A stretch of 64,000 nucleotides of DNA from a virus: positions 110,108 to 174,107 of the IMG/VR virus record IMGVR_UViG_3300009158_000001, one strand, 5' to 3'. The notes beneath the pieces were generated by a model, which saw only the letters and a program-made list of their open reading frames with translations, made no database searches and had not been told where the DNA came from. Of the stretch, positions 3,487 through 23,983 are shown one piece after another (position 1 is the first letter of the stretch; each line of letters opens with the position of its first letter). Position numbers and translations under genes: made by a program.

Positions 3487-3498
3487 CTATCTTCTTAC

Positions 3499-4812: not shown

Positions 4813-5161
4813 ACTAAAGTTTAAACTTTATTAACTTGATACCATAAGGAGCCTTATATATGTATAAGGACAAAACCTCTATATATATTTGGGGAAAAAA
4901 TCTAGGGGAAAAGCTAGGGGGAAAGGGGTATAGGTCTGGGAAAGACGTAGACTTGCCTAAAGAACTCTATATAGGTTTATATATTTATATTTTTATTTTT
5001 ATGGAAAAGAGTGGGTACTTTATATACTGGGACCCTTAAACAACCCATACCCCTATTCGTTTTAGCCCACCCCCTTTAAACGTAAAACTCTGACCGTTAG
5101 GGTGGGACATTGGGTTCCAAAAAGCCCTGCAATTGAGCAGGCACGCGTCTAGGAGTCTGCC

Positions 5162-8100
5162 ATGACTATTGCCCTTATCGTCCTCGCCATCTTCGTCTGC
5201 ATTGTCATCCTTTCCAACACGGTGAGCTATCTCATGACCGCCAACAAGACCGCGCCCATCACCCCCGCCGAGGTTCGTATGAACAACAACAACCACCCCC
5301 TCATCGTCCTGGCCATCGTCACCCTGGTTGTCATTGGTGGCCTTGTCACCTTCGGCATCGGCAAGACTGCTGGCCTGTGGGCTCAGCCCTCCTTCGAGGA
5401 TCTCGTTGACCCCTACGCTGTCGCTGAGTATGAGCAGGTTGCCCTGCGCATTACCAGCTTCCCCCACCCTGGTGTTGGCCAGTACTCGCCTGATGAGGGT
5501 ACCAATTGCACGGGCTGGGCCTGGAAGGGCCACATGTACGGCATTACCCATTGTGATGTCGACACATACATCATTGGCAAGGAGACGGGTGAGACCCCTG
5601 ATCCAGTGGTCCGTATCAACACGGATCACGTTGTCAGTGTCCCTGTATTGGGCAATGACCTCTACACCGTTGGCATGGAATGCAGCCCTGACCTTCGCTG
5701 GTGGGGTGCTACCACTGGTGAGTGGCGTAACCTCGATTGGAGCGACATCGACGTTGAGACATTCAGCCCTAACAACCGCGCTGCTAGCCTCATGCTTGAG
5801 CGCTGGCATGGTAGCGTAAACCGAGCACAGGACGCACTGGCTCAGCAGAACGAGTACAGCGCTAGCCTGTACACCAACACCGCCCTGTTCCAGCAGGGTG
5901 AGTGGGAGATCCTTAGCAAGGGTCAGCGCTACTGCTACGACAGCCAGGATGATGTGGTTGGCCATGGTGGCTGGTTCCGTAGTGGCGATAGCGGTGGTGT
6001 CCTTCTCGCAGGGGATGAGCCCATCGGCGCTGTTAGCTACAGCAACGGGTCTGAGACCCGCAACTGCTTCAGCGCAATTGCGTTGTCGCAGGAGAAGTCC
6101 TACCAGGACTTTGAGTTCCGGGAACTCTCTTCGACCACCATGGACCTGACTGGGAAGTTCAAGACCGCTGCTTCCCACTCGGGTATGCAGGGGCGGATTT
6201 TCCGTAGCCTCAACACCGAAACCACCAACGCCCATCAGGGCAAGGAGAATTTCATGCCTTACCTCATCCTCGCCATCCTCGGCCTCATCCTCGCTGCCGC
6301 CACCACGACCATCAAGGTCAAGGAGTTTCTCATGTCCAACCTTCGCACCATCGTCATTGGTTTCCTGATTGTCCTGGGCCTTGTGGTCCCGATCGTTCTG
6401 GCGTGGAACCACGCCCTCACGGTTTGTCCTGTCACGGACGCATGGTTCAGTGTCAACTTTATGAACGGTGCCCTGGTTAGCATCGTCGTTGAAATGGCTG
6501 CAATTGCGGCTGTTCTCGCCATGGCAACGCTTATCTCTGAGATGAGCTGCCCAAAGTGGATGGTTAAGCCTATCCTCGCCATCACCCCCAACCTTGCCAC
6601 CATCACGGCCAATAAGGCCAAGGAGTCTGTCATGCCTATTCGCCTGTACATTGCAATCATCCTCACAATCGCCATCTTCGTCCCCATGGCGCTTATCGCC
6701 ACCTTCCGAGAGGCCTTCGTGTGTATCTTGGGCCTTGGCCCCCTTGCATTCACGGCTATTGACCTCATTCTGCATGTGGAGTACCACTACCATGTGCGTG
6801 AGCTTTCTATCGTGACCAAGAAGCTCATCGCCCACCAGAAGCTGCACAAGCTGCTCTTTGGCGGTATGGCTCTTCTCGCCATGGTTCTTGGTGGGTGCGG
6901 CGATACCATCCAGCAGGCTCCTGCTGGTATGGGCGAAATCGTCGCCGCTCACAACGGCGAATGCAGCGCCTTCCACTGGCAGGGCCAGATCAGGACGGCG
7001 GCTCACTGCACCTATGCCAGCACCGATTGGCGGGACAACGCAACAGCCGTTCTTCACCAGCAGCAAGGAAAGCATGCTATCCCAGAAGACTTGGCAGATA
7101 TCGGCCAAGAGTGTAGCCCCGACCTGCGTTGGTGGGGTGCCACCACTGGTCGGACTCTGCCTGTGGAGGACGTCAAATTCTACGCTGTAAAGCGTGGGCA
7201 AAACGTCTGGGACCTTGGCGAACAAGTTCCTCCATGGACTCCTGGAGCACAGGCCTGCTTCACCCAGACCCTGCACAACCGCTTCTCCGACGGAGATAGC
7301 GGAGGACCCCTTCTCGCCGGTGATGAGCCGGTGGGCAGCGTCTCCTGGAGCAGCAACCTGCCTTGGGGCATGGCCTGCTTCGGCCGACTGGAAAAACAAC
7401 CAATGTGGGGAAATCTCTCCACGTCTTCCCCGCAAGGGGGTAAGGGCTTCCGCATGAAGTCCATCGAAATGACTGACAGCCTCGCTGTCACTTTGACCCA
7501 GGTCTTCACGGACCTTGCCATTGCAGGAGCAATCCTGGCGCTGGCCTTCCTTCTGGCCCGAGTCCGGGCCAAGTTCCGCACGCACGACGAAACCAACGCC
7601 GGCAATTCTGCTGGCCTCATTGGGGCTAAGAACCCCAGTAAGGGACACATGTCCCCCATTTTGGCCTTCGTGGCCCGCCTGACGAGCGTAATCGTCATCC
7701 TCCTCCTTGGTGTCTGCCTGCTGGCAGCACCCGGCGTGACCCCGCTGGTCTCTTCGAACAACAGCCCGACCATCGAGACGGGCATCGACCCTGAGGCCAT
7801 TGCCAAGATTGTCCAGCGCTTGAAGAAGCGCCTGGCGTACGGCATGCGGATGGCCAAGAAGAAGCGGTGGACCGTGCGTCGCTTGAACCGCTGGCTCGTT
7901 GCAAACGGTTACAAGGCCAAGGCCAAGAAGGCCAAGAAGGCGGTCGCAAAGGCCGTTGTCAAGTTTGACCGTGCGGGTATGACCCGCCGTCAGCGTCGCG
8001 CAAAGGCCCATAAGGCCAAGGTTGCAGCAACGAAGGCAGAAACCAAGGCTCGTGGCGTTAAGCGCCGCGCAGAAGCCAAGGCAACGAACGACGCAATCGC

Positions 8101-11100
8101 CAAGCTGGAGGCTGCGATTGCCTTCCTCGGGCTCATTGCCCGCGTGGCCCGTCACCAACGGCGCATGGAAGTGTCGGCTGCGCGGTCGAAGCGCAAGGTG
8201 GCTCGCAAGGCCACTGCTAAGCCCGCCGCCAAGAAGATCATTGTCAGGGCCGAGGGTGCAGGTCGTCCCACCTTCCACCCCCGCCGCAGCAAAGTCCAGG
8301 GATACAACCCTGCCGCACAAAGCCGACAGGAGATCATCACCTCACGCGAAAAGCGGGAAGAGCGTCGCCTTGCACGCGAGGCTCGGCACCTCACGCTCCT
8401 TAATAGGGCATATGCTGCCCTCCTCAACATGGTCGTTGAGGGAACGGCATTCAAAGCAGGCTGGACCCTTCGAGGTGCATGCATGCTGCTGGCGGACAAC
8501 ATGGCTTGGGTTGCCGCCCAGGCCGAGATCCAAACGTTCGATCAAGATGACGACGTGGCCTGGCAGTATGAGGCAGCCGTCCGCAACATCCCCTTCGAGA
8601 TTAAGCGGGAGGTTGAGAACGCAGAGGTCGACGCAGCATGGGCGCTCATCGAGGCCAACGACAAGAAAGTCCTTGCCGAGATCAAGCAAGCGAACGCTAA
8701 GGCGCGGGCCAAGAGGAAGGCAGAGCGTGAAGAGCGCATTGCCACTCACAGGGCGAAGGTCGACGCAGAGCGGGCCGAACGTGAAGCCGCCAAGGCCGTA
8801 AAGGCCGAAGAGCGCAGGAAGCGGGAAATGGCAAAGGCGGAGCGCCTGGTTGAAGCCCTCAAGGCCCGTGAGGCCAAGAAGGGCAAGACCACCAAGGTGG
8901 ATGTTACTCCTGTGTCTCCCGTGGCTAAGCTGCGGGAAGTCCAGGCAAACAGCCCCGTTCTCGCCGTTGTCGCAGGTCTTGGGCTTGCGACTGGCATGGT
9001 GGCCGTTGCCGTCATTGCCCTTGCTGCAATTGCCTTCTTCGCTATTCGCAAGAATCGTGCCGAAGACTGCAAAGAAGAAACGGTCGACGCAGATTGGGGC
9101 GATCTGCTTGAAGCTCCTGCTGAGCCACAGCCCCAGTCCCTGTTGCTGCGTCTGACAGAGCTCTTGGGCCAAGAGTCTCCTGCGCGGGAGGTTGTTGCAT
9201 ATGAACCTGCTCCTGCACCAGTTACTGTACCTGCCGAGCCAGAGCCGCAATCTCTTCTTGGGCGTCTTATTGAGCTTCTGCCTGAGGCTGAGGCGCGTGC
9301 TACTGAGCCTGCCACCTGCGCTTGCGGAATACCGCAGGAAGAAGGCTACGTCTGCGATACCTGCGTACTCAATGAGTATGCTGCTGGTATGGCAAATGCC
9401 CTCGAAAATGCGGTCGAAGAGTTTCCCTTCACCGATCCTGGTGACTGGGATGGCGGGGCAATCGATGACGTGTATGCGGCTCAGCTCATGGCGGCTGACC
9501 GTGAAGCCGCGCAACGCGATGCGGCAGACTTGGAAGAGCACCTGCAGGTTCTTGCGGCAGAAGCTGCTCTTGCAGACCTCGACCAGGAAGCAGAACAGGA
9601 CATTGATCCGCTAGATCTTCTAGTGGAGAAGGCCAAGGAGGAAGAGATGGAAGAGGAAAAGACCCCTGAGCAGGTCTGGGCAGAAATCTGCAATGAGCTG
9701 ACGGTATCCCCTAGGAACTACTCGGCTAATGCTGCAATGAACATCTTGATTGAGATGTATCAGCGCAAGATTGACCTGTTCCGTTTCCGCCATTTCGGCA
9801 CTACTCGTACGTTCACCCGCAAAGACAAAGACGGGGATAGGCGTACCAGTAAGACAAAGACTCTGCGCAAGGACGTTATTGTCCGGTTTGCCAGCATCCT
9901 GCGTCAGGACAAGGAGATGGCAACGTGGTTTGCGGAAGCAAGTCACGATCCCTCTTGGGAGCAGTTCTGGGTTGGCATCGAGTCCCTTATGAAGGACAAG
10001 AAGCAGGCTTGGACTGCCCAGGATTGGCGTATCCTTCGAGCCAGGTACGAAGCGGCTGTCTTGGTCGTTAACGACCTCTGCATCGAGTTCCTCGGTCAGT
10101 CGAAGAGCAAGCCAAAGTTCATGGCAAGTGAAGTCTCTTGTCTTGTAACCAAAGACACCTTCCGCTACCGTGCAGTTGGTGCGCAGGAAGCGATGGAAGC
10201 CTGCAAGCGCATTAACGCAAAGCACAAAGGTGGCTTCTGTGTGGCTCGTGGTGTCTACCAAGAGCAAATGCTTAGCGGCTCTCACCTGCCCTGGGTTGTT
10301 GATAAGGCTGACGGGGAAGGCAACTGGCTGGAGTTTGGCTTTGTTCTCACCACCAGCGCTGGTGTTGCAGACTGGGGCTTTGGCCGTGAAAACCGCAACA
10401 ATAGCAGTGTTGAGCTGAAGACTGCCACAGAAATGCTTGGTGGAATTGTCCAGCTTGATCAGTACAAGCCAGAACGTGCGTACATCGAGATGTTCCACAA
10501 GAACTGGACCTTGATGAAGAAGCCCAGCCTTAACGACTGGAAGACTTTCATTAAGACAGCCTTTGCCAATGGCAACATGTTATTCATTAACCCAACGACA
10601 ATGGATACCAGGCATGTCGCCAAGAACGGCACCAGTTACAGTAAGTCTGTAACTGACAATGGCACAACAGCCAGCACGGTCCATACTTTCTTCAACGATG
10701 GTAGCGTGACCACGGTAATGACGCGCAAGACTCTTGATGCAAATTCGAAAGGCTTTGCTCACAAGTTCAGCAGTGCGCGGACGACTATCAGGAAGTTCTT
10801 CTTGAAACACTCTGGTATTCGTGATCTCAAGGTTCTTCCTTGGGAAGTTGTCGAAAGCCGAGATGAGCTGGCAACAAAGTTTGGCAATGAGTCGTATGAC
10901 CAATACCAGGCATGCCGTAAAGCAATCTCTGCTGATCGCAATCATCGGCTAGACGTTGTAGTTCTTAGCCGCGTGAACAATGCACGGTTTGAGGCTTGGG
11001 CTACTGAGTATGTGCAGAATAAGCAATCATCGGTTGTTTATCACATCAAGACTCGGCAGCCTTTGACGCTCAGCCAGCTCAACAAGCAGAATAAGGCCCT

Positions 11101-14100
11101 TGCAAAGCTGCAGGGTAATTACTTCTTGGCTCAAACTGAGTTGGAAACTAGCCGCGCTGGTATTGCAGCCATTAGGCATACGATTGAGACGAGTGCTTAT
11201 ACGTCTCAAGAACTGTCTTCTGATTTGATTGAGGCCTTCAAAGAAGGTTACCAATGGATGAAGACTCCTGGTGGCTATCAGTTGGTTAGCGCAAGAAAAG
11301 CTGCAGCAAACCCAGAGAAGATTCTCAAGGGCGAAGCTCTTGCTGCTGTGCTGGATGCGTGGATCAAGACTGCCATTGACGTTCAGGCAGACTCTCTTCG
11401 CGCAGAGGGTGCGAAGATTGTGCGCAGGTACGAAGAAGCACTTCAGCTTCTGCTTCCTGGGTACAGCTGCAAGGTCAATGGTGAGGATTGTCTCATGGCT
11501 GCATACAATAAAGCAGAACATGCGAAAAAGACAGACCCCAGCAATCCTGAGATTGCCTTGCTTCTTGCAGCGTACTATGCGGAGTACGAGAAAGAGCAAG
11601 CGGAGTACGAGAATGAGCAAGCGAAAATCCAAGCGCGTTACGAGAAAACCCATAAGGAATGTCAGGAGTATGAGCAGCGCGTTAAGGAGCAGGAAGGATG
11701 GGATGAAATCCCGTTCTGTAAAGCAGGTGCCGTTCTTTCGGCATTGGCTCTTGCAGCTGGGCTTCCTGCCTTCGTGGTAGTGTTGCCGCTTGCACTGACG
11801 GCACTGGCTGCTTTCATGAAGATGGAAAACTCTGACGTTGAAGGTGAGGAGATCCTCGCTGACAATGCAGAGTTCTGCCTGTACAGTACACCAATTGTCC
11901 GTCACACAACAGGCAAGTGGACTGCAGTCAAAGACAACAACACTGGGGAATCCGCCCCAGTCGAAGCTGGCGAAAGCCAGAAGGAGAAGCCCATGAGCTT
12001 CCTTGACAAGATGAACCAGACCATCCGAAATGTCTGGAACGAGCTCACCGGCCGTGAGAGAATTGGTACTGACGTGAAGACCAAGGCACCTGCCACGTAC
12101 GGCTCTATCCTTGCTGCCAGCAAGGTTGAGCACACGGCACTTACCCGTATCTGCGGTGGTAAGATCCGTGAGATGCAAGTCACCGAACTCAGCAGTGAAG
12201 AGCTGCGTGAGATCAAAGACTTCATCCGCCGTGATGGTGACACCTGGATCATTGTCCGCGACTCTCAGAAGTTCCACTTCCCGAACTGGGCAATGGAGAA
12301 GCTGGTGTCTGAGATTGTGATTGCAGGTCACGCTGTCGACAAGAAGGTCAGCCAGCAGGAAGTGAATAAGTATTTCGGCAGCTTGCTTTGGGCTCCTGCT
12401 GAGATTGTTTCCTTCCAGGCTAGCGAAGCCAAGGTCATGAGTGATGGGCTTGCCGCCATGTACGACGGTACCAACCTGATGAGCGATGAGCTTGCATCGA
12501 CTATCGACTGGGTTGGCTATGCAATTCGTCGACTGCTTACGGTACTCGGCTTGTTCAAGGGTATGTTCATTATCCTTCCTGCTGGGTACTTCCCGTCTGG
12601 GGTCAAGCTATTCGGCAGTGAGGTGAAGAAGCACCTTCGTCTGCGTCGGGATAGCGGTCGTGCACTTGCACTGCAGCCTCAGGCTAACGGTCACAGTGAT
12701 GTGGCTAGGACTCTAGGCATGCAGCTTTGGTCCATGCTGTTGGGCCCCTGGATTGCTAGTGTTGGTTTTGCCAATCTAGCGAAGGGAGCGTACGGCTATG
12801 CAATGTCGAACCTGAACAAGGCTAATGAGCGTCTTCTTGCTCCTGCAGAGGAAGAAGAAGAAGGCCGCGATGCCTTGATGGCTGAGGCTAGCCGCCTGCA
12901 CGGGTTCAATCCAATTGCTGTATTCAGGTCTTTTGCGACCAGCATGGCAAACGGGCTCACGAAGTCCTTCAATCCCAACAAGGTGAACATTGCACCTGTT
13001 GACGAGAAGGGCAGAAGCCTTGTGCCAAACGGCTATCCGATGATGCTGCCTTGGCTTGCGCTGGCAGAGCTGTGGCTCAAGGTCACGGGCAAAGTGCCAG
13101 AAGAGCTTGCTAAGAAGGTTGAAGATACCGAAAAGCTTCGTCTGCGGCTCTTTAAGCTTGCGAACGGCGCAATTCCAGTGCTTGTGCACAACATGCACCG
13201 CCTTGATGCGGCTAAGGTTGCAGGCATTCGTCGCATGGCTATTGCTGCTATTGCGACTCGCATCCCGACTGGCAAGACCAGCGGTATCGAGGTTATGCTC
13301 TTCGACGCAGAAGAGTATGGGGCAGATCTACTGCCTGAGATCGTTGGCCGTAAGAAGAACGACATTGAGTTCTGGCTCTTCCCTTGCGAGGAGACCACGG
13401 CCTTCAAGGTTGCTTCTGAGGGCGGCGACGACGACGACCTGTACGAGTTCCTCCTGGGAATTCTGCACAAGCTGGCTCGCCTTGGCCTTGAGTGGCGGGC
13501 AAAGATCCTCGATGTGAGTGCCGATACGCAAAAGGCCATGGACGAAATCAAAGTTCGCTTTGCTCGTCAGGTGGCAGCATTCAAAGAAGACCGTAAGCTT
13601 CTTGCAAAGCTGATGGAGATGCCTTATGCAAAAGTCTTCACGGCAAATGGCAAGGTCAGGGCAGGCTGGCCGTCTCTCTTGGGTGTTACCATGGCACCAG
13701 GTGGATGGCAGATCCGTCACACGGAAGCTGTTGAAGATATCATCGTGATGACCGAGGAGTCCCGTGAAGATATCGCCACCCAGGCTCGCCTCTTTGCTGA
13801 GGTAATGACAGCAAACAACGACAGCCCGTTCACCAGCGCCATTGGCACTGTTGCGCAGAGCCACAAGTTTGCCACTGGCATCTTGACTGGAAACGTTGTG
13901 CTGACGAACAGTATCGGTGCTCTGGATAAGATCTGGGCACTCTTTGTTCTTGCTACCATTCTGCTGTCGGATATGGTAGACGCTTGCAACAAGGGCAAGA
14001 AGTACGCAGAGGCTGGTGCTGCACTCATGTACCTTAACTGGGCATGGGGCTGGCTGTGCTATCGTATTGCTAGCAATCCAGATGCTAAGGTTATCTGCCC

Positions 14101-16453
14101 TGCGCAGTATCTAGTATCTGTGCCTCCTGCTGCCAAAGAGCTGTTCAACGCACGTCATGCTAATAAGATGACTGTTGATGGCAAAGTTGTTCAGCCGGGC
14201 AAGCTTCTCAACAATCTCTATGAGAACCATAGAGAGCTTGGCGAGACGGTCGAGGCTATGATCCGCGAAGAGCACAACCGTGCTGAGTTCTCGGCTACGG
14301 TAACTGCGATGCTTCAGACTGTTAGCGTTCCTGTGCCTGGGGCTGCTTCTGCTCAGGGTATGGGCTCGGAAGTCTGGGCTGAAGTCTGGACTGCAAGCGG
14401 CCGCAAGAAGATCTACCTGGATGGTCTCAAGCAGAAGTCTGCTATGAGGTTCGAAGACATTCGGGCAGAGCAGCGTTACATGGCAGAACTCAACAATGCA
14501 ACCGTCTACGCAGCACATGCTGAGTTTGACCGTATTGTCATGGGTCGCCTTGTGAAAGCTGATCCTAACGCTACTAGTGAGGAGATTGCAGCTATGTTCA
14601 AGCTTTGCAAGCTTGGCATGGTCTACTCGTATGCTTTCAAGACTGTTGGCTACGAAGAGAACTGCGTCAAGATCCTTATGGATGAAGAGGGAGAGTTCGG
14701 CGCTTCTGGCGGCGTTCCTACCTACATCATCCCTGTCAGCGGCAACTGCACCTTTATCGGCAACTTTGCAGGTAGCAGCGAGATCCTCCTTGAGTGGATG
14801 ATGAATCCTGCTACACTCGCACTTGTTGCTGAGATCAAAGCCAAGGCTGGCGACTTCAAGTACGTCGTTCTCTCCATGAAGGGTGAAGCCTTTGGAGAGA
14901 TGATTGACGGCGGTCGTGACCTCAGGTACAGCGAGGCTGACTTTGATGGCAAATCCATCACGGAGATCCTCTGTATGCCTGGCGTTGCTCTTGCTGGCAA
15001 TCAGCGTGAAGAAAGCCACGTTGATCAGAGCACCTGGCTTGCAAGTGTAGCAGACACGGTCACGCAACGTCGCAACGACATTCTTCGCAAGCTGAAGGCG
15101 GAGAACAAAGCAGCAGAAGCATTGCTTCGCGGCAAGACTTTCGGAGAGCTTCTTCAGGAGTTCAACGTAACGGTCGTCGCAGAGTCCGTCACTGGCACTG
15201 CCAAGGTCGAAAAGATCGAGGCGTTCAAGTGGATGGACAAGAAGCATGCGGGTCGTACGTACCCAAACACCTTTGTCATTGTTCGCTTCGGGAATGAAGC
15301 AGATCCTGTGACTGAGGAGATGGAAGAGGATGATATTACCATCTTCCTTGCTGACGAAGTGATTGAGGCTGCTCCTGACACCAAGGAGAACATTACGATC
15401 GAGGCCTCTGCTCCTGTGGTTGAAAAGACTGCAGAAGCAAAAAAAGACAGCATAAGCGATAAGCTCAACCGCATCTTCGGCAAGAAGGAGGCTGTTAAGC
15501 CCCCTGCTCCTATCGAAGTCGTGCCTGCTGCTGTTGTTGCGGCTGCTACTGGACAAGAGGAGCTCAAGATCCTGAGCATTTCTGAGCCTGCCTTTGCGAA
15601 AGAAGGATGGTCCCAGACCAGCGAAGGAAAGCTTGTGCGCCGCACTTTCAGCAAGACCAAAGTCAAGGAAGTCTTTGCTGCTGGCTGGAACTTCTGCTTC
15701 TGCGAGGGCGATGGAGACAAGTGGGTCATTGCAGACACCCGCTTTGGTTTTGTCATTGGCCGCGGACAGACTCAGGTCATAGCGTTGCAAAGGGCAATTG
15801 CAAACACCCAGGCTGCTAAGGTTGGACGCAACCTTCTTGACGAAGTCCAGTTCTCGAACTGGCTCTTTGACCGTGCAACTCAGGCTCAGCGTCCGCTTGT
15901 TGACCTGATTGCAGAGCACAACAAGAAGGAAGAGCCCGTGGCCGAGGCAACTCCTGCTACTCCTGTTGTTGTCGCAGAGACTGCTGGTACTAAGCCTACT
16001 AGCCGTTGCGTTGGTAACTTCGCATTGGCTGGCCTTCAGCACTCTAGTAACGTCAATGTTGCTGAGCGTGAGCTTGTTGAGGGCGTAAAGATTACTCTCA
16101 TCCGCAATGTGGCTCACCCCAAGGATGCAAATGCCGTTGAGGTCCATGTGAATGGTTACCGCTTCGGGTATGTTCCTAAGGAAGCCGCTGCAAGGCTGGC
16201 TCCTCGGATGGACATCGGCGTGAAGGCGTGGGCCATTGTCACGGGATGGGAAAACGGGTACGCCCGCTTCGATCTGTTCCTTGGCAAGACGCCCACTACC
16301 TTGGAGACGTTCAACTACCAGCGTGACGAAATCGAGCGTGCATGCGAGGGGCTTGCCTGGCTGGAGTCGTACGACGCGACCGATGAACAGAAGGCTCCGG
16401 CTAATGCCCTCCTTGCGCACTTTGCTGCCCTTTGTGGTAGCCTTAAGCTCTGA
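5162..16453 (+). CDS. 3763-aa polyprotein-like ORF: membrane segments, two trypsin-like serine proteases, basic/coiled-coil and acidic regions, two-barrel RNA polymerase, HIRAN domain
   Basis: Open frame with SD AGGAG at 5151; domain motifs are listed in the sub-features; several in-frame internal SD+ATG sites. Confidence 0.85.
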   Translation: MTIALIVLAIFVCIVILSNTVSYLMTANKTAPITPAEVRMNNNNHPLIVLAIVTLVVIGGLVTFGIGKTAGLWAQPSFEDLVDPYAVAEYEQVALRITSFPHPGVGQYSPDEGTNCTGWAWKGHMYGITHCDVDTYIIGKETGETPDPVVRINTDHVVSVPVLGNDLYTVGMECSPDLRWWGATTGEWRNLDWSDIDVETFSPNNRAASLMLERWHGSVNRAQDALAQQNEYSASLYTNTALFQQGEWEILSKGQRYCYDSQDDVVGHGGWFRSGDSGGVLLAGDEPIGAVSYSNGSETRNCFSAIALSQEKSYQDFEFRELSSTTMDLTGKFKTAASHSGMQGRIFRSLNTETTNAHQGKENFMPYLILAILGLILAAATTTIKVKEFLMSNLRTIVIGFLIVLGLVVPIVLAWNHALTVCPVTDAWFSVNFMNGALVSIVVEMAAIAAVLAMATLISEMSCPKWMVKPILAITPNLATITANKAKESVMPIRLYIAIILTIAIFVPMALIATFREAFVCILGLGPLAFTAIDLILHVEYHYHVRELSIVTKKLIAHQKLHKLLFGGMALLAMVLGGCGDTIQQAPAGMGEIVAAHNGECSAFHWQGQIRTAAHCTYASTDWRDNATAVLHQQQGKHAIPEDLADIGQECSPDLRWWGATTGRTLPVEDVKFYAVKRGQNVWDLGEQVPPWTPGAQACFTQTLHNRFSDGDSGGPLLAGDEPVGSVSWSSNLPWGMACFGRLEKQPMWGNLSTSSPQGGKGFRMKSIEMTDSLAVTLTQVFTDLAIAGAILALAFLLARVRAKFRTHDETNAGNSAGLIGAKNPSKGHMSPILAFVARLTSVIVILLLGVCLLAAPGVTPLVSSNNSPTIETGIDPEAIAKIVQRLKKRLAYGMRMAKKKRWTVRRLNRWLVANGYKAKAKKAKKAVAKAVVKFDRAGMTRRQRRAKAHKAKVAATKAETKARGVKRRAEAKATNDAIAKLEAAIAFLGLIARVARHQRRMEVSAARSKRKVARKATAKPAAKKIIVRAEGAGRPTFHPRRSKVQGYNPAAQSRQEIITSREKREERRLAREARHLTLLNRAYAALLNMVVEGTAFKAGWTLRGACMLLADNMAWVAAQAEIQTFDQDDDVAWQYEAAVRNIPFEIKREVENAEVDAAWALIEANDKKVLAEIKQANAKARAKRKAEREERIATHRAKVDAERAEREAAKAVKAEERRKREMAKAERLVEALKAREAKKGKTTKVDVTPVSPVAKLREVQANSPVLAVVAGLGLATGMVAVAVIALAAIAFFAIRKNRAEDCKEETVDADWGDLLEAPAEPQPQSLLLRLTELLGQESPAREVVAYEPAPAPVTVPAEPEPQSLLGRLIELLPEAEARATEPATCACGIPQEEGYVCDTCVLNEYAAGMANALENAVEEFPFTDPGDWDGGAIDDVYAAQLMAADREAAQRDAADLEEHLQVLAAEAALADLDQEAEQDIDPLDLLVEKAKEEEMEEEKTPEQVWAEICNELTVSPRNYSANAAMNILIEMYQRKIDLFRFRHFGTTRTFTRKDKDGDRRTSKTKTLRKDVIVRFASILRQDKEMATWFAEASHDPSWEQFWVGIESLMKDKKQAWTAQDWRILRARYEAAVLVVNDLCIEFLGQSKSKPKFMASEVSCLVTKDTFRYRAVGAQEAMEACKRINAKHKGGFCVARGVYQEQMLSGSHLPWVVDKADGEGNWLEFGFVLTTSAGVADWGFGRENRNNSSVELKTATEMLGGIVQLDQYKPERAYIEMFHKNWTLMKKPSLNDWKTFIKTAFANGNMLFINPTTMDTRHVAKNGTSYSKSVTDNGTTASTVHTFFNDGSVTTVMTRKTLDANSKGFAHKFSSARTTIRKFFLKHSGIRDLKVLPWEVVESRDELATKFGNESYDQYQACRKAISADRNHRLDVVVLSRVNNARFEAWATEYVQNKQSSVVYHIKTRQPLTLSQLNKQNKALAKLQGNYFLAQTELETSRAGIAAIRHTIETSAYTSQELSSDLIEAFKEGYQWMKTPGGYQLVSARKAAANPEKILKGEALAAVLDAWIKTAIDVQADSLRAEGAKIVRRYEEALQLLLPGYSCKVNGEDCLMAAYNKAEHAKKTDPSNPEIALLLAAYYAEYEKEQAEYENEQAKIQARYEKTHKECQEYEQRVKEQEGWDEIPFCKAGAVLSALALAAGLPAFVVVLPLALTALAAFMKMENSDVEGEEILADNAEFCLYSTPIVRHTTGKWTAVKDNNTGESAPVEAGESQKEKPMSFLDKMNQTIRNVWNELTGRERIGTDVKTKAPATYGSILAASKVEHTALTRICGGKIREMQVTELSSEELREIKDFIRRDGDTWIIVRDSQKFHFPNWAMEKLVSEIVIAGHAVDKKVSQQEVNKYFGSLLWAPAEIVSFQASEAKVMSDGLAAMYDGTNLMSDELASTIDWVGYAIRRLLTVLGLFKGMFIILPAGYFPSGVKLFGSEVKKHLRLRRDSGRALALQPQANGHSDVARTLGMQLWSMLLGPWIASVGFANLAKGAYGYAMSNLNKANERLLAPAEEEEEGRDALMAEASRLHGFNPIAVFRSFATSMANGLTKSFNPNKVNIAPVDEKGRSLVPNGYPMMLPWLALAELWLKVTGKVPEELAKKVEDTEKLRLRLFKLANGAIPVLVHNMHRLDAAKVAGIRRMAIAAIATRIPTGKTSGIEVMLFDAEEYGADLLPEIVGRKKNDIEFWLFPCEETTAFKVASEGGDDDDLYEFLLGILHKLARLGLEWRAKILDVSADTQKAMDEIKVRFARQVAAFKEDRKLLAKLMEMPYAKVFTANGKVRAGWPSLLGVTMAPGGWQIRHTEAVEDIIVMTEESREDIATQARLFAEVMTANNDSPFTSAIGTVAQSHKFATGILTGNVVLTNSIGALDKIWALFVLATILLSDMVDACNKGKKYAEAGAALMYLNWAWGWLCYRIASNPDAKVICPAQYLVSVPPAAKELFNARHANKMTVDGKVVQPGKLLNNLYENHRELGETVEAMIREEHNRAEFSATVTAMLQTVSVPVPGAASAQGMGSEVWAEVWTASGRKKIYLDGLKQKSAMRFEDIRAEQRYMAELNNATVYAAHAEFDRIVMGRLVKADPNATSEEIAAMFKLCKLGMVYSYAFKTVGYEENCVKILMDEEGEFGASGGVPTYIIPVSGNCTFIGNFAGSSEILLEWMMNPATLALVAEIKAKAGDFKYVVLSMKGEAFGEMIDGGRDLRYSEADFDGKSITEILCMPGVALAGNQREESHVDQSTWLASVADTVTQRRNDILRKLKAENKAAEALLRGKTFGELLQEFNVTVVAESVTGTAKVEKIEAFKWMDKKHAGRTYPNTFVIVRFGNEADPVTEEMEEDDITIFLADEVIEAAPDTKENITIEASAPVVEKTAEAKKDSISDKLNRIFGKKEAVKPPAPIEVVPAAVVAAATGQEELKILSISEPAFAKEGWSQTSEGKLVRRTFSKTKVKEVFAAGWNFCFCEGDGDKWVIADTRFGFVIGRGQTQVIALQRAIANTQAAKVGRNLLDEVQFSNWLFDRATQAQRPLVDLIAEHNKKEEPVAEATPATPVVVAETAGTKPTSRCVGNFALAGLQHSSNVNVAERELVEGVKITLIRNVAHPKDANAVEVHVNGYRFGYVPKEAAARLAPRMDIGVKAWAIVTGWENGYARFDLFLGKTPTTLETFNYQRDEIERACEGLAWLESYDATDEQKAPANALLAHFAALCGSLKL
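5500..6080 (+). other. Trypsin-like serine protease domain 1 of the giant ORF
   Basis: CTG..GITHC (His, 5546-5554), GNDLY (Asp), GDSGG (5984-5998), then LLAGDEPIGAVS; preceded by a signal-anchor. Confidence 0.7.
6940..7390 (+). other. Trypsin-like serine protease domain 2 of the giant ORF, preceded by a lipobox-like LGGC
   Basis: CSA..TAAHC (6995-7009), EDLA (Asp), GDSGGPL (7292-7312), GSVSW; LGGC at 6887-6898 follows a basic and hydrophobic stretch. Confidence 0.8.
11993..15300 (+). other. Single-subunit double-psi-barrel RNA polymerase domain (YonO / cellular-RdRP-like); C-terminal boundary approximate
   Basis: Motifs in family order: YDGTNLMS (12461), FKGMF (12554), TRIP (13256), GGDDDD (13421-13438), AIG (13838), SDMVDACNKG (13967-13996). 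Has its own SD AAGGAG + ATG at 11993. Confidence 0.75.
16019..16285 (+). other. HIRAN domain at the C-terminus of the giant ORF
   Basis: FALAGLQH...ITLIRNVAHPKDANAVEV..GYRFGYVPKEAAARLAPRMD matches the HIRAN consensus. Confidence 0.85.
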
Positions 16454-16475
16454 GGTTACTATGAAGGAGATCCTC

Positions 16476-16733
16476 ATGAAGTACATGGGTGGTGCTAAGT
16501 ATCCTGGTCCTTGCCGCAATTGCAGCCGCTACTGTGGTTGTGATACACTGCGGCTCTTCCGAGATGACCGATATAAGGCAGCGAAGTGGGTCACAATCTG
16601 CACAGATTGCTGTGAAGAATGGGATGCCCGCTTCAACAAGCCCAAGGCCATTGTGGCTCCTCAACCTGCTCCTGTAAAGGAAGTGAAGGTTGTGGAAGTC
16701 GCTAAGCCAAAGCAACTTTCGTTGTTCGGCTAG
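16476..16733 (+). CDS. Small Cys-rich (zinc-finger-like) protein
   Basis: SD AAGGAG before ATG 16476 (alternative in-frame ATG at 16461); CRNC..CTDC. Confidence 0.6.
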   Translation: MKYMGGAKYPGPCRNCSRYCGCDTLRLFRDDRYKAAKWVTICTDCCEEWDARFNKPKAIVAPQPAPVKEVKVVEVAKPKQLSLFG

Positions 16734-16806: not shown

Positions 16807-16897
16807 ACTACTTACTTACAGAGGCCAAACGACTCCGCTACTCCGCTCCCCCTCGAAAGCCTGTGTGTATTTTGTAATTTCTGCACCCCCTTGGAGA

Positions 16898-16912
16898 GGC
16901 TCCTGCGTCGCC
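16898..16912 (+). promoter_or_regulatory. Hairpin motif copy 1 (putative phage-RNAP promoter)
   Basis: GGC-TCCTGCGTC-GCC. Confidence 0.65.
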
Positions 16913-16970
16913 CAGAGCATTGTAGGCTTCGCTCCCTGGCAACAAAGCTAGACCAACGAGAGGTCTGGTG

Positions 16971-16987
16971 GGCCTCCTGCGTCGGCC
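16971..16987 (+). promoter_or_regulatory. Hairpin motif copy 2
   Basis: GGCC-TCCTGCGTC-GGCC. Confidence 0.65.
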
Positions 16988-16989
16988 AG

Positions 16990-17152
16990 ATATAGTGAGC
17001 GTTCACGCTTGCTATACTGGCGGATCCGTCCCAGTAGATGCGAGAGATAACGGATAGGTACCTCCCAAACGTCTACCTTGTCGGGTGTGGGAAGGCCGAA
17101 AACGCTGACAAGGAAAGAACCTCTGGCCTCACGGCTGGGGGTTCTTTTTTTT
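16990..17152 (+). ncRNA. Putative structured small RNA ending in an intrinsic terminator
   Basis: No credible ORF. Stems TATAGTGAGCG/CGCTTGCTATA and CCTTGTCGG/CTGACAAGG; terminator at 17115-17152. Confidence 0.45.
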
Positions 17153-17201
17153 CCACTCCGCTGAATAACCAGATAACTTGTGGCAACCAGGGGTCTTACG
17201 A

Positions 17202-17216
17202 GGCTCCTTCGTCGCC
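17202..17216 (+). promoter_or_regulatory. Hairpin motif copy 3
   Basis: GGC-TCCTTCGTC-GCC. Confidence 0.65.
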
Positions 17217-17219
17217 CAA

Positions 17220-17457
17220 AGCATCGGATGGTGGCTGCCGCTACCCGTATCAGAGAAGGCCTGTCGGTCTCTGGTATGTATCAGACAGGGGCGGTTGCCA
17301 GTCCGCCTAACAGAAAAACTGGCCGTCATCCCCTTTAGGATGGCATGTTTACGTCCCCTCTTGGACGGGTTCCTGGTAGTGGTAATCCTACTTACTGCGT
17401 ACCAGGATAGAGAGGTAAAGCCCCAGCACAGTAGGATGTGTTGGGGTTTTATTTTTG
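17220..17457 (+). ncRNA. Putative structured small RNA ending in an intrinsic terminator
   Basis: No SD-led ORF. Stems CCTGTC/GACAGG, GCCAGT/ACTGGC, GCCGTC/GATGGC, TCCTGGTA/TACCAGGA; terminator at 17417-17457. Confidence 0.45.
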
Positions 17458-17508
17458 TTACTCCGCTATATAAGTAGATTACTAGTAACTATATAGTGGT
17501 TTGTTGGC

Positions 17509-17523
17509 GGCTCCTACGTCGCC
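17509..17523 (+). promoter_or_regulatory. Hairpin motif copy 4
   Basis: GGC-TCCTACGTC-GCC. Confidence 0.65.
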
Positions 17524-17526
17524 CAA

Positions 17527-17674
17527 AGCACTGGGCGTTGACGCTCTGCCATCTCCGTTGGTAGAGACTAGCTTTAAAACACGGGGAGTCCCAGGTCGGC
17601 CTTACGGGCTTGGATAAGACTATTGGCAGAAGGACAGATTCCCACTACTAGGCCGGTAGTGGGTTTCTTTTTTT
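17527..17674 (+). ncRNA. Putative small RNA ending in an intrinsic terminator
   Basis: No SD-led ORF; terminator CCCACTAC/GTAGTGGG + T-tract at 17641-17674. Confidence 0.4.
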
Positions 17675-17692
17675 GGCCTCCTTCGTCGGCCA
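17674..17692 (+). promoter_or_regulatory. Hairpin motif copy 5
   Basis: TGGCC-TCCTTCGTC-GGCCA. Confidence 0.65.
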
Positions 17693-17736
17693 GAGATTAT
17701 GAGGCACTTTCGCCTCTCGGTCCTTAGGAGGACACC

Positions 17737-17949
17737 ATGAAGGCAGGTAAGTATCACTCGTACGACTGGCGAACCGAGCGGGATGCGGATGCTGATAGGA
17801 GCGTCTTCGTCCAGGCCTGGAAAGCCAAGTTCCCTGGGGTCGTGCCGCAGTTCGCCATCATCCTGGATGACGGCAGTTGCCACTGGTGGAACGAATGGCC
17901 AGACGGGCGGACTCGGCGGCTTCCGCCTAGCACATTCAAGATCGGCTAA
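17737..17949 (+). CDS. Hypothetical protein (70 aa)
   Basis: SD TAGGAGG; lies between motif copy 5 and a terminator. Confidence 0.75.
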   Translation: MKAGKYHSYDWRTERDADADRSVFVQAWKAKFPGVVPQFAIILDDGSCHWWNEWPDGRTRRLPPSTFKIG

Positions 17950-17955
17950 AGATAG

Positions 17956-17987
17956 ACCCTCGGCTTCGGTTGGGGGTTTTTCTTTTC
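17956..17987 (+). terminator. Intrinsic terminator with C-UUCG-G loop
   Basis: ACCCTCGGC-TTCG-GTTGGGGGT + T-tract. Confidence 0.8.
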
Positions 17988-18126
17988 TCACTCCGCTACA
18001 CAGTGGGGTGGCTCCAGCTCCCGGACTCTTCGGCGGTCAGCAGGTAGGAACCCAATAGCAAAAAGAGGCGAAAAAATATAGACTCCGCTATAGGCCGGAA
18101 AGGTTATATCAACTAGTAGTGTTGAG

Positions 18127-18141
18127 AGCTCCTGCGTCGCC
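18127..18141 (+). promoter_or_regulatory. Hairpin motif copy 6
   Basis: AGC-TCCTGCGTC-GCC. Confidence 0.6.
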
Positions 18142-18144
18142 TAA

Positions 18145-18408
18145 GTGTTGTGAGGTAATCGCGGACCTCTTAGTCATGTTCCAACCCTGGGGAGCATGAT
18201 GAGCCTAGTTAGACAAGGCAAAACGAACAAAGGGAGTAGGTGTCCATCCGCCGAAGTTAAGAGCACCTGTACGCGGGACTCGGGATGGAACTCATGTGCT
18301 GGATCTCCTAAGGAGGCACATGTTTAAACAGAAGAGGGGATGACCTGCGCATGTCACAAAACTGCCCCAATTTTAACCCTCTGGCTTCGGTCGGAGGGTT
18401 TTTCTTTT
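18145..18408 (+). ncRNA. Putative structured RNA ending in an intrinsic terminator
   Basis: Stems GAGGT/ACCTC, CATGTTCC/GGAGCATG, TCCATCC/GGATGGA; UUCG terminator at 18376-18408; only a 6-codon SD-led micro-ORF. Confidence 0.4.
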
Positions 18409-18426
18409 GGCCTCCTGCGTCGTCCA
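18408..18426 (+). promoter_or_regulatory. Hairpin motif copy 7
   Basis: TGGCC-TCCTGCGTC-GTCCA. Confidence 0.6.
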
Positions 18427-18466
18427 GAGAAAGTGGGCAACTTTCGCCCCAAACGGAGAAGAGAAC

Positions 18467-18646
18467 ATGCAGTACGATCTTACAGTGACACAAAGCCCCA
18501 GCGGACTCGTATACTTTCGGGTATACAGCAAAGAGACCGGTGATTGCAAGTGCATCCTGAGCATCGACCCCAAGGACGGGTCTCTCGAGGCGGCAACGGG
18601 TGACGAGGAGTTCACGGGCTACTCCATCGTTGGAGAACTCGTCTAA
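18467..18646 (+). CDS. Hypothetical protein (59 aa)
   Basis: SD GGAG before ATG 18467 (MQYDLTV...). Confidence 0.65.
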   Translation: MQYDLTVTQSPSGLVYFRVYSKETGDCKCILSIDPKDGSLEAATGDEEFTGYSIVGELV

Positions 18647-18650
18647 GAGA

Positions 18651-18680
18651 GACCCTGGCTTCGGCTGGGGTTTCTTTTTT
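18651..18680 (+). terminator. Intrinsic terminator with C-UUCG-G loop
   Basis: GACCCTGGC-TTCG-GCTGGGGTT + T-tract. Confidence 0.8.
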
Positions 18681-18682
18681 CA

Positions 18683-18697
18683 GGCTCCTTCGTCGCC
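18683..18697 (+). promoter_or_regulatory. Hairpin motif copy 8
   Basis: GGC-TCCTTCGTC-GCC. Confidence 0.65.
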
Positions 18698-18740
18698 CAA
18701 GGAAAATGGGTAATGTCACCCTTCCTTTACGGAGTCGAAG

Positions 18741-19145
18741 ATGAACAGTGTCAATTTTGTCGGGTTTCTTACTTCCACCCATAAGGAAGTGGGCGATGTC
18801 CTCTGTGTCGTCGTGAAGAGTGTCGATGGGAACAGTGCTCCCACTGTGCGTTTCACGGGCAAGCAGCGTGAGGCTCTCAAGAAGTGGGGCACCCCCGGAC
18901 GTCTTGTGAGCATCAGTGGCAGCTTCGGAACGGAGGTGAATGGCAAGGTGAAGGACTCCTTCATCGCCTGCGCCTACAGCCGTTTCTTGGACAAGCAGGA
19001 GACTGTGGCTAAGGCTGCTGCTCCTGTTGCGGCACCTGTCGTGGCTGCTGCACCTGTCAAGGCTGCAAAGGCTCCCAAGGCTGCAAAGGCCACAAAGGCT
19101 GCTCCTCCCGCGAATGTCGATCCTGACGACGTTCCGTGGGCGTAA
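18741..19145 (+). CDS. Divergent SSB-like OB-fold protein
   Basis: MNSVNFVGFLT start, GRLVSISGSF strand, Ala/Lys/Pro linker and acidic tail DPDDVPWA. Confidence 0.6.
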   Translation: MNSVNFVGFLTSTHKEVGDVLCVVVKSVDGNSAPTVRFTGKQREALKKWGTPGRLVSISGSFGTEVNGKVKDSFIACAYSRFLDKQETVAKAAAPVAAPVVAAAPVKAAKAPKAAKATKAAPPANVDPDDVPWA

Positions 19146-19147
19146 CT

Positions 19148-19180
19148 AACCCCTGGCTTCGGCTGGGGGTTCTTTTTCTT
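19148..19180 (+). terminator. Intrinsic terminator with C-UUCG-G loop
   Basis: AACCCCTGGC-TTCG-GCTGGGGGTT + T-tract. Confidence 0.8.
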
Positions 19181-19271
19181 GACTCCGCTATGGGCCGGTG
19201 CAGTTCCAGCTCCGAGACGTCTGGCGGCTGTCAGGGAGAAGACCATCATCAAAAAGAGGCGAAAATAAATG

Positions 19272-19286
19272 GGCTCCTGCGTCGCC
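19272..19286 (+). promoter_or_regulatory. Hairpin motif copy 9
   Basis: GGC-TCCTGCGTC-GCC. Confidence 0.65.
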
Positions 19287-19327
19287 TAGGTACAGTGAGG
19301 GTTTGTCCTCGTTGCCAGGAGTCTGTC

Positions 19328-19468
19328 ATGTTTGAGAAAGTGTCGCTTGAAGACTGTTACGGTATCGCTGTGGGTGGTGAGGACGAGATGATCGCCCGCA
19401 TCGACGAGGCCAATGAGTACGTGTACAACCACGATGAGTTGGATGACTTCGACTACAGCGAAGGTTGA
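19328..19468 (+). CDS. Small acidic protein (46 aa)
   Basis: AGGAGTCTGTC-ATG start; terminator at 19470-19498 follows. Confidence 0.65.
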   Translation: MFEKVSLEDCYGIAVGGEDEMIARIDEANEYVYNHDELDDFDYSEG

Positions 19469-19509
19469 AGAGATGGCCCGAAAGGGTCTTTTCTTTTCTA
19501 AGACAAAGG

Positions 19510-19526
19510 GGCCTCCTGCGTCGGCC
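19510..19526 (+). promoter_or_regulatory. Hairpin motif copy 10
   Basis: GGCC-TCCTGCGTC-GGCC. Confidence 0.65.
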
Positions 19527-19529
19527 ATA

Positions 19530-23062: not shown

Positions 23063-23214
23063 TGAGAAGCATCCTTATGAGTACTGTATCCTTTACTATG
23101 GAGCATATCAATGGAACTGCAAACATTGTAGTCCCTGTGTGGTTTGTGTTTCTCTATACTGCGGCTAGTTTGATCTGGCCAGCCATTGCTATCTTGGCCC
23201 TCGTAAATAGAGGG

Positions 23215-23233
23215 TAGCCTCCTTCGTCGGCTA
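23215..23233 (+). promoter_or_regulatory. Hairpin motif copy 11
   Basis: TAGCC-TCCTTCGTC-GGCTA. Confidence 0.65.
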
Positions 23234-23409
23234 GTTCTTCCCTATTGGAGAGTAAACCTAAGATAGAGAAAACAATGATCAATGAAATCAAACAACTTCT
23301 ATTAGGAGCCGCAGGTCTCGCAGGTGCATTTCTTATAGTGCTTCTGTGCTTTGAAGTCTTGATCGCAATCAAAGACATCGCAATAGTTATGATTAACTAG
23401 ATAAAGGAG

Positions 23410-23428
23410 TAGCCTCCTGCGTCGGCTA
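23410..23428 (+). promoter_or_regulatory. Hairpin motif copy 12
   Basis: TAGCC-TCCTGCGTC-GGCTA. Confidence 0.65.
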
Positions 23429-23493
23429 GATGTCGTGCTATTGTGTCCTATTCAATAAGTTTCCTTCGATAAGAAGGGTAAGTGAGAGTTGTC

Positions 23494-23955
23494 ATGAAAG
23501 ATAAGAATCGTGTTGAACTTCGTGGTCGTCTTGGTGCAGATCCTATTCTCTCTACTACGGAGACCGGACGTAGTCGGACTAGCCTTCGTCTCTGTACTAA
23601 TTACGAGTATAAGACTGCTGATGGTACGGAAGTAAAGAACTCCGAGTGGCACACTATCGTTGTCTGGGGTAAGGCTGCCGAGAACGCAGTCAAGTACCTG
23701 TCAAAGGGTAGTGAAGCAGAGGTCGAGGGTCGTCTTCAGTCCCGTAAGTACACGGACAAGGCGGGAGTTGAGCGTTACACTACGGAGATCGTGGCGAACG
23801 AGATCAACTATGGTCGTCGTCCTACTGCTAAGACTGCAGAGGAAGCGGCCCCAGCTGCTCAGGCCAGTCCTGTTCAGCGTACTACGGTTCGTCGCCGAGA
23901 GAATGAGGTTACTGCTTCTAGTAACTTTCAGTCTGATGACGAGATTCCGTTCTAG
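23494..23955 (+). CDS. ssb: Single-stranded DNA-binding protein
   Basis: NRVELRGRLGADP, EWHTIVVWGKAAE, KGSEAEVEGRLQSRKYTDK, YTTEI, C-terminal DDEIPF. Confidence 0.95.
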   Translation: MKDKNRVELRGRLGADPILSTTETGRSRTSLRLCTNYEYKTADGTEVKNSEWHTIVVWGKAAENAVKYLSKGSEAEVEGRLQSRKYTDKAGVERYTTEIVANEINYGRRPTAKTAEEAAPAAQASPVQRTTVRRRENEVTASSNFQSDDEIPF

Positions 23956-23983
23956 TCAACTACTAGGGTAAAACCTAGGCTGC

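Follow-up and report, generated by a model that had tools for sequence, protein, structure and literature searches.

We analysed the last 64 kb (64,000 nucleotides; the window) of a 174,107-bp IMG/VR phage record, IMGVR_UViG_3300009158_000001. A giant open reading frame (ORF) on the plus strand, 5162-16453, is open for 3763 codons and ends in a putative RNA polymerase (RNAP) joined to a HIRAN domain. Ahead of the RNAP and HIRAN, which make up the C-terminal part, the predicted chain contains transmembrane (TM) helices, two trypsin-like modules, a basic region and a Cys-rich segment. The RNAP-HIRAN module covers amino acids (aa) 2278-3763 (1,486 residues; 11993-16453, plus strand) and begins at an in-frame ATG with AAGGAG and a 6-nucleotide (nt) spacer ahead, where translation could start internally. 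In the giant ORF, six internal ATGs have Shine-Dalgarno (SD) sequences of the AAGGAG type (aa 365, 391, 491, 1496, 2278 and 3145), mostly at module boundaries. Frames on the opposite strand (e.g. 14111-16519) were rejected as by-products of high G+C content; homologues, predicted fold and Pfam all back the plus-strand frame.

The original prediction, made from the letters of the DNA, had read this module as a YonO/RdRP-like enzyme (RdRP, RNA-dependent RNA polymerase) with an altered Asp loop and a fused HIRAN domain. The six motifs on which it relied were all found in place: DGTNLMS (aa 2435), LFKGM (2464), TRIPTG (2699), GGDDDDL (2754), SAIGT (2892) and VDACNKG (2939). A word-indexed search gave five relatives of the polymerase, and HMMER, run exhaustively on 1.84 billion cluster representatives, gave 19 proteins, eight of them with E < 1e-30; a peptide-pattern scan of IMG/VR with the single protein gave no relatives. 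The 19 family cores, 20-66% identical to the query, were aligned (mean column identity 29%). Residues 2360-3000 were common to all members, and five of the six motifs fell on invariant or near-invariant columns. The invariant columns were R2700, P2702, G2754, D2756, D2758, D2759, A2898, S2936, D2940, A2941 and A2951. Near-invariant columns (>90%) included K2403, Y2404, D2435, G2436, K2466, G2467, P2478, Q2521, S2707, G2910, K2944 and G2945.

The two-barrel polymerase core shared by all 19 members, which is also the part that was modelled, spans aa 2340-3020 (12179-14221, plus strand, as are all features of the module). Beyond the core, the polymerase body extends C-terminally to about aa 3385 (14222-15316); this stretch is kept only in closer relatives, 42-54% identical (P0007, P0010), in which the conserved body runs from about aa 2300 to 3385. 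The first-barrel motifs D2435-G2436 and K2466-G2467 (12464-12562) match D709/K743 of QDE-1 and D248/K270 of YonO. By alignment and model, R2700-I-P2702 (13259-13267) is the invariant RxP of the second, beta-prime-type barrel; it lies 56 residues ahead of D2756, where about 45 are expected in the superfamily. The predicted catalytic loop, G2754-G-D2756-D-D2758-D2759 (13421-13438), falls between helix 404-412 and strand 422-425 of the model. The motif S2936..D2940-A2941..K2944-G2945 (13967-13996) is the counterpart of VD..K.G in RdRP and YonO.

Eight residues are common to all two-barrel polymerases: QDE-1 D709, R738, K743, R962, P964, D1007, D1009 and D1011 (Ruprich-Robert and Thuriaux, PMC2919709). 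In a seven-member YonO-family alignment built from annotated phage records, the invariants included the same eight (D248, R265, K270, R491, P493, D534, D536 and D538). Six of the eight are kept here: D2435, K2466, R2700, P2702, D2756 and D2758. The second Asp of the loop, D2757, is variable, so that the conserved loop reads G-x-D-x-D-D in all 19 members; the missing Gly pointed out by the original prediction is real and family-wide. The loop fails the DxDxD signature, reported to be invariant in the two-barrel superfamily (PMC2919709; PMC10770324): the third Asp comes one position early (D2759) and the loop is one residue shorter. Because the active-site residues are fixed across members sharing 20-28% identity, we argue for an active enzyme, and the apparent purifying selection on the Asp loop likewise argues for catalysis.

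Predicted fold and relation to known two-barrel polymerases

An AlphaFold2 (AF2) model of aa 2340-3020, built with the 19-sequence alignment, had a predicted local distance difference test (pLDDT) score of 89.3 and a predicted template modelling (pTM) score of 0.84. The fold named beforehand as the check on the original prediction, two double-psi beta-barrels (DPBBs) with Asp residues in the active-site loop, was recovered by AF2, Foldseek and VIA-align. In model numbering, a strand at 354-361 ends in R-x-P and is followed by strands at 370-376 and 397-400, a helix at 404-412, the Asp loop at 413-421 and a strand at 422-425. The beta-prime sequence has the same order around NRAPTLH...NADFDGDQMAVH, and the Asp loop falls in the place of NADFDGD there. 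The Asp loop is well packed, with pLDDT of 85-93 over blocks 411-430.

All 21 Foldseek matches in the PDB with E < 1e-3 were single-subunit two-barrel RNAPs: QDE-1, maize and Arabidopsis RDR2, the Thermus-phage gp64 type and P23-45 gp96. RNA polymerase II Rpb1 ranked below these 21. The top five VIA-align matches, over 320-487 residues, were maize RDR2 (Z 13.1, 432 residues), P74-26 gp62 (Z 12.5, 396 residues), QDE-1 (Z 11.8, 487 residues) and gp96 (Z 9.8 and 9.3). The next rank fell to Z 6.5, with isolated DPBB domains on model residues 280-430. Among viral predicted structures (BFVD), the best matches comprised uncharacterised phage proteins, two proteins with the annotation RNA-dependent RNA polymerase, P23-45 gp64 and fragments of crAss-like RNAP. 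The best match in the ESM Atlas (template modelling score 0.61 by query, 527 residues) belonged to a mostly Bacillota, YonO-like cluster in which 78% of members carry the Pfam RdRP domain PF05183; a search of the Atlas with aa 3021-3619 gave no usable match. These comparisons support a predicted two-barrel RNAP fold with two DPBB domains in one core, beta-like and then beta-prime-like.

Several results weigh against this assignment. PF05183 gave no match for P0001 at E ≤ 0.1, nor in any of the 19 members at E ≤ 1. Searches of PDB sequences with phmmer and with the family profile gave only weak HIRAN or chance matches. With hhalign, the family profile was not significantly similar to the single YonO, gp64 and gp96 sequences or to the seven-member YonO alignment; the only block with the YonO profile pairs DG with DG and KG with KG, setting D2435 and K2466 against YonO D248 and K270, at E 0.035 and a probability of 1.5%. 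The label YonO/RdRP-like was thus borne out by predicted structure but not by sequence. The Asp loop was placed from the order of secondary structure, and the Asp geometry is inferred from that placement. The basic residue expected five positions before K2466 is absent; R2457, nine before, occurs in most members but not all. Given the reported invariance of DxDxD, a DxDD loop could in principle be inactive.

The polymerase core matched no family in Pfam or PHROGs; a search with the whole giant protein matched HIRAN and, below threshold, trypsin only. A tblastn search of aa 2278-3763 against 50,697 GenBank phages gave no match. Because the core has no match in Pfam, PHROGs, PDB sequences or GenBank phages, we regard the family as new. 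No published description of it was found, and full-text searches for HIRAN with two-barrel or phage polymerases gave general reviews only. The predicted fold and most of the active-site residues place it in the two-barrel superfamily, nearer to YonO, RdRP and gp64, as a new family distinguished by a changed catalytic loop and by its domain partners.

YonO of the Bacillus prophage SPbeta is likewise a single chain with two DPBBs. It has the same motif order (DG, KG, RxP, Asp loop, D..K), with a DG-RxP spacing of 243 aa against 265 here, and YonO-like proteins gave the best predicted-structure match. A YonO-like protein is also encoded by a large tailed phage, 0305phi8-36 (PMC2919709). The two differ in that YonO has DNDGD in place of DxDD and retains R265, five positions before the Lys of KG, which is missing here; the chain described here adds about 400 aa of conserved C-terminal extension and HIRAN, within 3763 aa. 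QDE-1 of Neurospora and plant RDR2, the best solved-structure matches (Foldseek E 5e-6), have the same active-site set bar the exceptions noted. However, they are 11-13% identical, carry DYDGD-type loops, lack HIRAN and copy RNA or single-stranded DNA (ssDNA) in silencing.

Thermus phage P23-45 gp64 and its P74-26 counterpart gp62 (non-virion), and gp96 (virion), are phage single-subunit two-barrel transcriptases as well. They differ from the family here in their DxDxD loops, in the lack of sequence similarity and in their promoters, which are linear AT- or GC-rich motifs and not hairpins. In gp96 a two-barrel enzyme forms part of a giant chain that also contains membrane and peptidase modules (PMC10770324); there the polymerase occupies the N terminus of a tape measure, whereas here it is C-terminal in a chain that has serine-protease modules. 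The crAss-like virion RNAP phi14:2 gp66 is also a giant protein with a two-barrel polymerase and matched weakly (Z 4.4 over 468 aa), far less well than the YonO/RDR branch. It has a DFDxD loop against GDDDD here, and its gene lies in the structural block, whereas the gene here lies outside that block on the other strand.

HIRAN, alternative modules and the giant chain

The HIRAN fusion is real: PF08797 matched aa 3620-3693 (16019-16240, plus strand) with E 3.5e-8 and 33.6 bits, above the curated cut-off of 24.7. The polymerase body is followed by an acidic Pro/Ala-rich linker, a segment of about 120 residues, HIRAN and a 70-residue tail. HIRAN was found in P0001, P0003, P0004, P0005, P0008, P0010 and P0011, the last with a core only 28% identical; the relatives score 35.6-42.5 bits. 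A YpsA/SLOG (DprA-like) module occurs in P0005, P0006, P0010, P0013 and P0016, and a PIF1/RecD-type helicase is fused to the core in P0014 and P0018. Members of about 1,100 residues have no recognisable C-terminal module. Genes for single-stranded DNA-binding protein (SSB) lie a few kb downstream in three related contigs. In contig L023, a core-helicase relative (6445-11976) has a metallophosphatase gene before it and YpsA-DUF4326 and SSB genes after it. The partners HIRAN, SLOG, PIF1 and SSB all handle single-stranded DNA or DNA ends.

Alignment of the HIRAN domain to that of HLTF was weak. The Asp of NPYD, which contacts the 3'-OH of ssDNA in HLTF, and a downstream Lys are kept; the stacking Tyr before the Asp is Lys here. 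In HLTF, HIRAN is joined to a SWI/SNF translocase and a RING domain, whereas here it is joined to a polymerase.

Upstream of the module, aa 1-2277 (window 5162-11992) contain about 13 hydrophobic stretches, a Lys/Arg/Ala-rich region and an insert of about 680 aa (aa 1496-2180); the trypsin-like modules have GDSGG at aa 275 and 711. A hydropathy scan placed a TM-like segment just 5' of the polymerase module, at aa 2183-2223 (11708-11830, plus strand). It is followed by FCLYSTP at aa 2238-2244 (11873-11893, plus strand), a candidate module boundary or processing site. The upstream order in closer relatives is TM segments, a basic W-T motif, a Cys-rich segment, an EHLQVLA helix, a TM segment and F[CR]LYS[TG]P, the last at a constant 507-540 residues before the Asp loop (six relatives). 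TM segments stand directly ahead of the polymerase in P0004, P0005 and P0006. In L017 a trypsin-like gene abuts the polymerase gene, and in L019, L023 and L024 the polymerase is a free-standing gene. Units that are separate in relatives are one frame in the window, and AAGGAG-N6-ATG remains exactly at aa 2278. A soluble RNAP-HIRAN could therefore come from internal initiation or cleavage.

Hairpin elements and neighbouring genes

The motif TCCTDCGTC had 18 matches in the genome against 0.7 expected, all on the plus strand and all inside the window. Fifteen of the 18 copies have complementary G+C flanks (triplets or quadruplets) and form hairpins of about 21 nt, with a 3-6 bp G+C stem and a 9-nt loop, TCCT[G/T/A]CGTC. 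Ten of these lie at 16895-19528, three at 23214, 23409 and 25376 (23214-25396) and one each at 33588-33608 and 56986-57006. The first is 442 nt past the polymerase stop codon, and the polymerase gene itself has none upstream of it. Several come after a terminator-like hairpin and T-run, and several have a ACTCCGCT box 47-60 nt upstream. The ACTCCGCT box has seven plus-strand copies in the window, at 16832-19190, just past terminator-like T-runs, and L017 and L025 contain repeats of it too. The box could belong to a composite promoter or constitute a promoter class of its own.

Hairpin arrays also follow the polymerase gene in two relatives: 11 copies in L017, which has a 51%-identical polymerase, and about 10, some with the loop TCCGTTGTC, in the 149-kb Logan contig L025, which has a 28%-identical one. 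Over 37 copies, the 4-bp stem was paired in 91% of cells and showed 18 double-sided changes, compared with 6.8 ± 1.9 in shuffles, none of 500 of which reached 18. Slid controls of stem covariation were all much weaker. Since the elements are conserved and their stems covary, they are real structured elements and likely promoters; their placement suits promoters or 5' leaders of short transcription units. That this polymerase reads them is argued mainly from their constant association with its gene.

Other observations weaken that argument. The hairpin loop is barely changed where the polymerase is only 28% identical, and no co-variation of polymerase and promoter is visible. L025 also carries P0026, 92% identical to a second candidate polymerase of this phage, P0025. 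The hairpins might be read by another polymerase or act in RNA. A scan of IMG/VR with the 17-mer hairpin gave 21 loci, about the number estimated by chance, and only the known relative contig had the polymerase.

Phage N4 gp50 reads promoters in hairpin form with the help of ssDNA-binding functions. Its likeness to the system here (giant polymerase, hairpin promoters, ssDNA-binding help) holds only if the hairpins are promoters. N4 gp50 differs in its right-hand, T7-like fold, and N4 hairpins have 5-7 bp stems and 3-nt loops compared with 3-6 bp and 9 nt here.

Together, the polymerase gene and the hairpin-marked block make up an island of high G+C (window 5162-25400), 50-61% compared with about 38% for the phage. 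Matching islands occur in L017 (10001-21000) and L019 (9001-15327), whose polymerases are 51% and about 26% identical. Because the island is also present in these two related phages with diverged polymerases, it is maintained rather than recently imported.

The polymerase gene adjoins a late/structural block on the other strand, made up of genes for a 437-aa protein, a 1329-aa protein with a staphylococcal-nuclease domain and other large proteins, then terminase and portal. The 437-aa protein (window 3499-4812, minus strand), encoded divergently from the giant ORF, has a Cys cluster that is conserved. It is 82-88% identical in phages whose polymerase is 28-51% identical; in L025 the 435-aa neighbour is 88% identical and the polymerase core 28%, so that the polymerase diverges far faster than its neighbours. 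Three of four orthologues of the 437-aa protein matched Pfam vRNAP_dom (PF21769) at aa 337-426 weakly and below cut-off (E 0.003-0.024), and a profile search of PDB sequences gave no confirmation. The 1329-aa protein (window 1-3486, minus strand; full gene L007:9604-13593), with its nuclease domain at the C terminus, neighbours the polymerase module in all four contigs examined. The divergent intergenic region ahead of the giant ORF, 4812-5162, holds many TATATA and GGGGAAA(A) repeats and may be a regulatory region or replication origin; similar TATATAGGGGTATA repeats lie at 24835-25107 in L017 and 25558-25644 in L025.

A second candidate polymerase, P0025 (1953 aa; G000:C1:63898-69759, L005:3898-9759, minus strand), is encoded in the structural block with terminase, portal and head protein. 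Its ADFDHD aligns with SDYDGD in a 29%-identical homologue, and it is a candidate two-barrel, perhaps virion, polymerase. P0025 had no PHROG, Pfam, PDB or GenBank-phage match and only two homologues were found; it showed no profile similarity to the polymerase family here, and the AF2 model of its aa 700-1760 was poor (pLDDT 38.7). As a gene of the structural block, P0025 fits the description of gp66 better than the HIRAN-linked polymerase does. P23-45 uses two two-barrel polymerases, and if P0025 is one, this phage would resemble it. In P23-45 the virion enzyme transcribes pre-early genes, among them the gene of the second, non-virion enzyme (PMC10770324).

The phage genome also has a sigma-70 family gene (373-aa frame), and because it encodes this factor the phage presumably uses host RNAP at some stage. 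A DnaG-type primase was found in one 857-aa frame (DNAG_N 36 bits, Toprim_2 43 bits); the sigma-70 protein and the primase are listed at G000:C1:14910-16669. There was no match to multisubunit beta-prime in the genome, and none to PF00940 (T7/N4-type RNAP), though that search matched in no control genome either. Moorella phage MTATph1 and Bacillus phage 0305phi8-36 have the terminases closest to that of this phage. Elsewhere in the window, a spore-photoproduct-lyase family protein, a short adenylosuccinate-synthase homologue and an ATP-dependent DNA ligase are encoded in a row at 45001-48265. The label PurZ that a PHROG gave to the second of these was set aside: PurA scores better, both are below cut-off, and no Z-genome is claimed. 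Six tRNA genes (Arg-tct, Met, Lys, Pro, Thr and Tyr) lie at 23984-43954. A 123-bp repeat at the ends of the record may be mere assembly overlap.

Proposed role and alternatives

From the predicted fold and the gene order, we consider it probable that the module is a single-subunit two-barrel RNAP of the clade of YonO, QDE-1, RDR2 and gp64/gp96, founding a small undescribed family, and that it would act on DNA, on the downstream hairpin genes, after infection. That the enzyme is active with DNA as its template is probable. In the model and alignment the first barrel supplies D2435 and K2466, and the second R2700-x-P2702 and a metal-binding loop, D2756-x-D2758-D2759. A flexible linker joins the polymerase to HIRAN, with YpsA/SLOG or the PIF1 helicase at this place in relatives, and HIRAN or these alternative ssDNA-handling modules may keep the enzyme bound to template DNA that is single-stranded or melted. 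A soluble form would arise by internal initiation at AAGGAG-ATG 11993, or the chain's own trypsin-like modules would cut it free. Whether it transcribes the co-oriented small genes directly downstream from the 15 hairpins, GGCC-TCCTKCGTC-GGCC, we regard as evenly balanced.

The loop bears on whether there is an enzyme at all. A polymerase fold that has lost catalysis and persists as a structural or DNA-binding protein would explain the broken DxDxD spacing, since a DxDD loop stands where the motif has been called invariant (PMC2919709). Drift would then be expected, but the three Asp residues, RxP, DG and KG are fixed at only 20-28% identity and the model is well packed at the loop; we consider this highly improbable. 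For an active enzyme the nature of the template is the next point. The best solved-structure matches, RDR2 and QDE-1, and the Pfam RdRP of the best Atlas match could suggest an RNA-dependent enzyme that copies phage or host RNA, for example making double-stranded RNA or amplifying small RNAs. This we hold to be the least probable of the readings considered: YonO, of the same branch, is DNA-dependent (PMC5467207), the phage has double-stranded DNA, HIRAN, PIF1 and SSB are DNA modules, and nothing within the window points to an RNA template. The recurrent fusion or adjacency with HIRAN, YpsA/DprA-like SLOG, PIF1, metallophosphatase and SSB would also suit a replication or repair RNA synthase on ssDNA, primase-like or QDE-1-like, in which HIRAN binds the 3' end, PIF1 unwinds and SSB coats the template. 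QDE-1, among the best structural matches, is reported to use ssDNA templates (PMC9508822). Such a role is improbable, as the phage has its own DnaG-type primase, the conserved terminator-plus-hairpin units before small ORFs look like transcription units, and the characterised phage members of the clade, YonO, gp64, gp96 and gp66, are transcriptases (PMC5467207, PMC10770324).

The strongest competitor to an enzyme made after infection is one delivered with the virion. The 3763-aa chain or its pieces would be packaged, the N-terminal modules would enter the envelope, the proteases would cut, and RNAP-HIRAN would enter with the DNA and transcribe the hairpin-marked early genes. The hydrophobic stretches and both GDSGG protease modules lie in the same chain as the polymerase, and the fusion to TM and protease modules and the giant size resemble those of virion-delivered N4 gp50, phi14:2 gp66 and P23-45 gp96, which counts against synthesis after infection. 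In addition, P0004, P0005 and P0006 have TM segments directly ahead of the polymerase with the F[CR]LYS[TG]P boundary, a protease gene abuts the polymerase gene in L017, the polymerase gene itself has no upstream hairpin, and it is adjacent to and divergent from the late/structural block. Every giant phage RNAP protein known so far belongs to the virion (PMC10770324; bioRxiv 2020.03.07.982082). However, the gene has the same strand and the same unusual composition as the small early-type genes, in which it differs from the structural genes, and the free-standing polymerases of distant relatives have no TM segments. Virion delivery is in our judgement a substantial but lesser possibility. The balance tips modestly toward synthesis after infection, because the gene is upstream of and co-oriented with the array, as T7 gene 1 is with its promoters, and because distant relatives stand alone, an internal SD-ATG marks the module start, and a separate candidate lies in the virion block.

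A broader reading is unlikely to hold in full: a re-engineered DxDD lineage that starts at hairpin DNA promoters with fused ssDNA-end or unwinding modules would be the N4 strategy on a cellular-type fold, made from a membrane-tethered polyprotein that processes itself and links the entry of DNA with the first transcription.

The predicted family would add a branch to the few known single-chain, cellular-type phage polymerases, and its partners HIRAN, SLOG and PIF1 point to single-stranded or structured templates. DxDxD has been described as invariant in the cellular, viral, phage and RNA-silencing RNAPs surveyed, and the 19 diverged DxDD members are a natural test of what a two-metal site tolerates. 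The candidate promoter set of about 21 nt, kept in three phages, makes minimal promoter recognition by a two-barrel polymerase testable and might yield a compact orthogonal transcription system.

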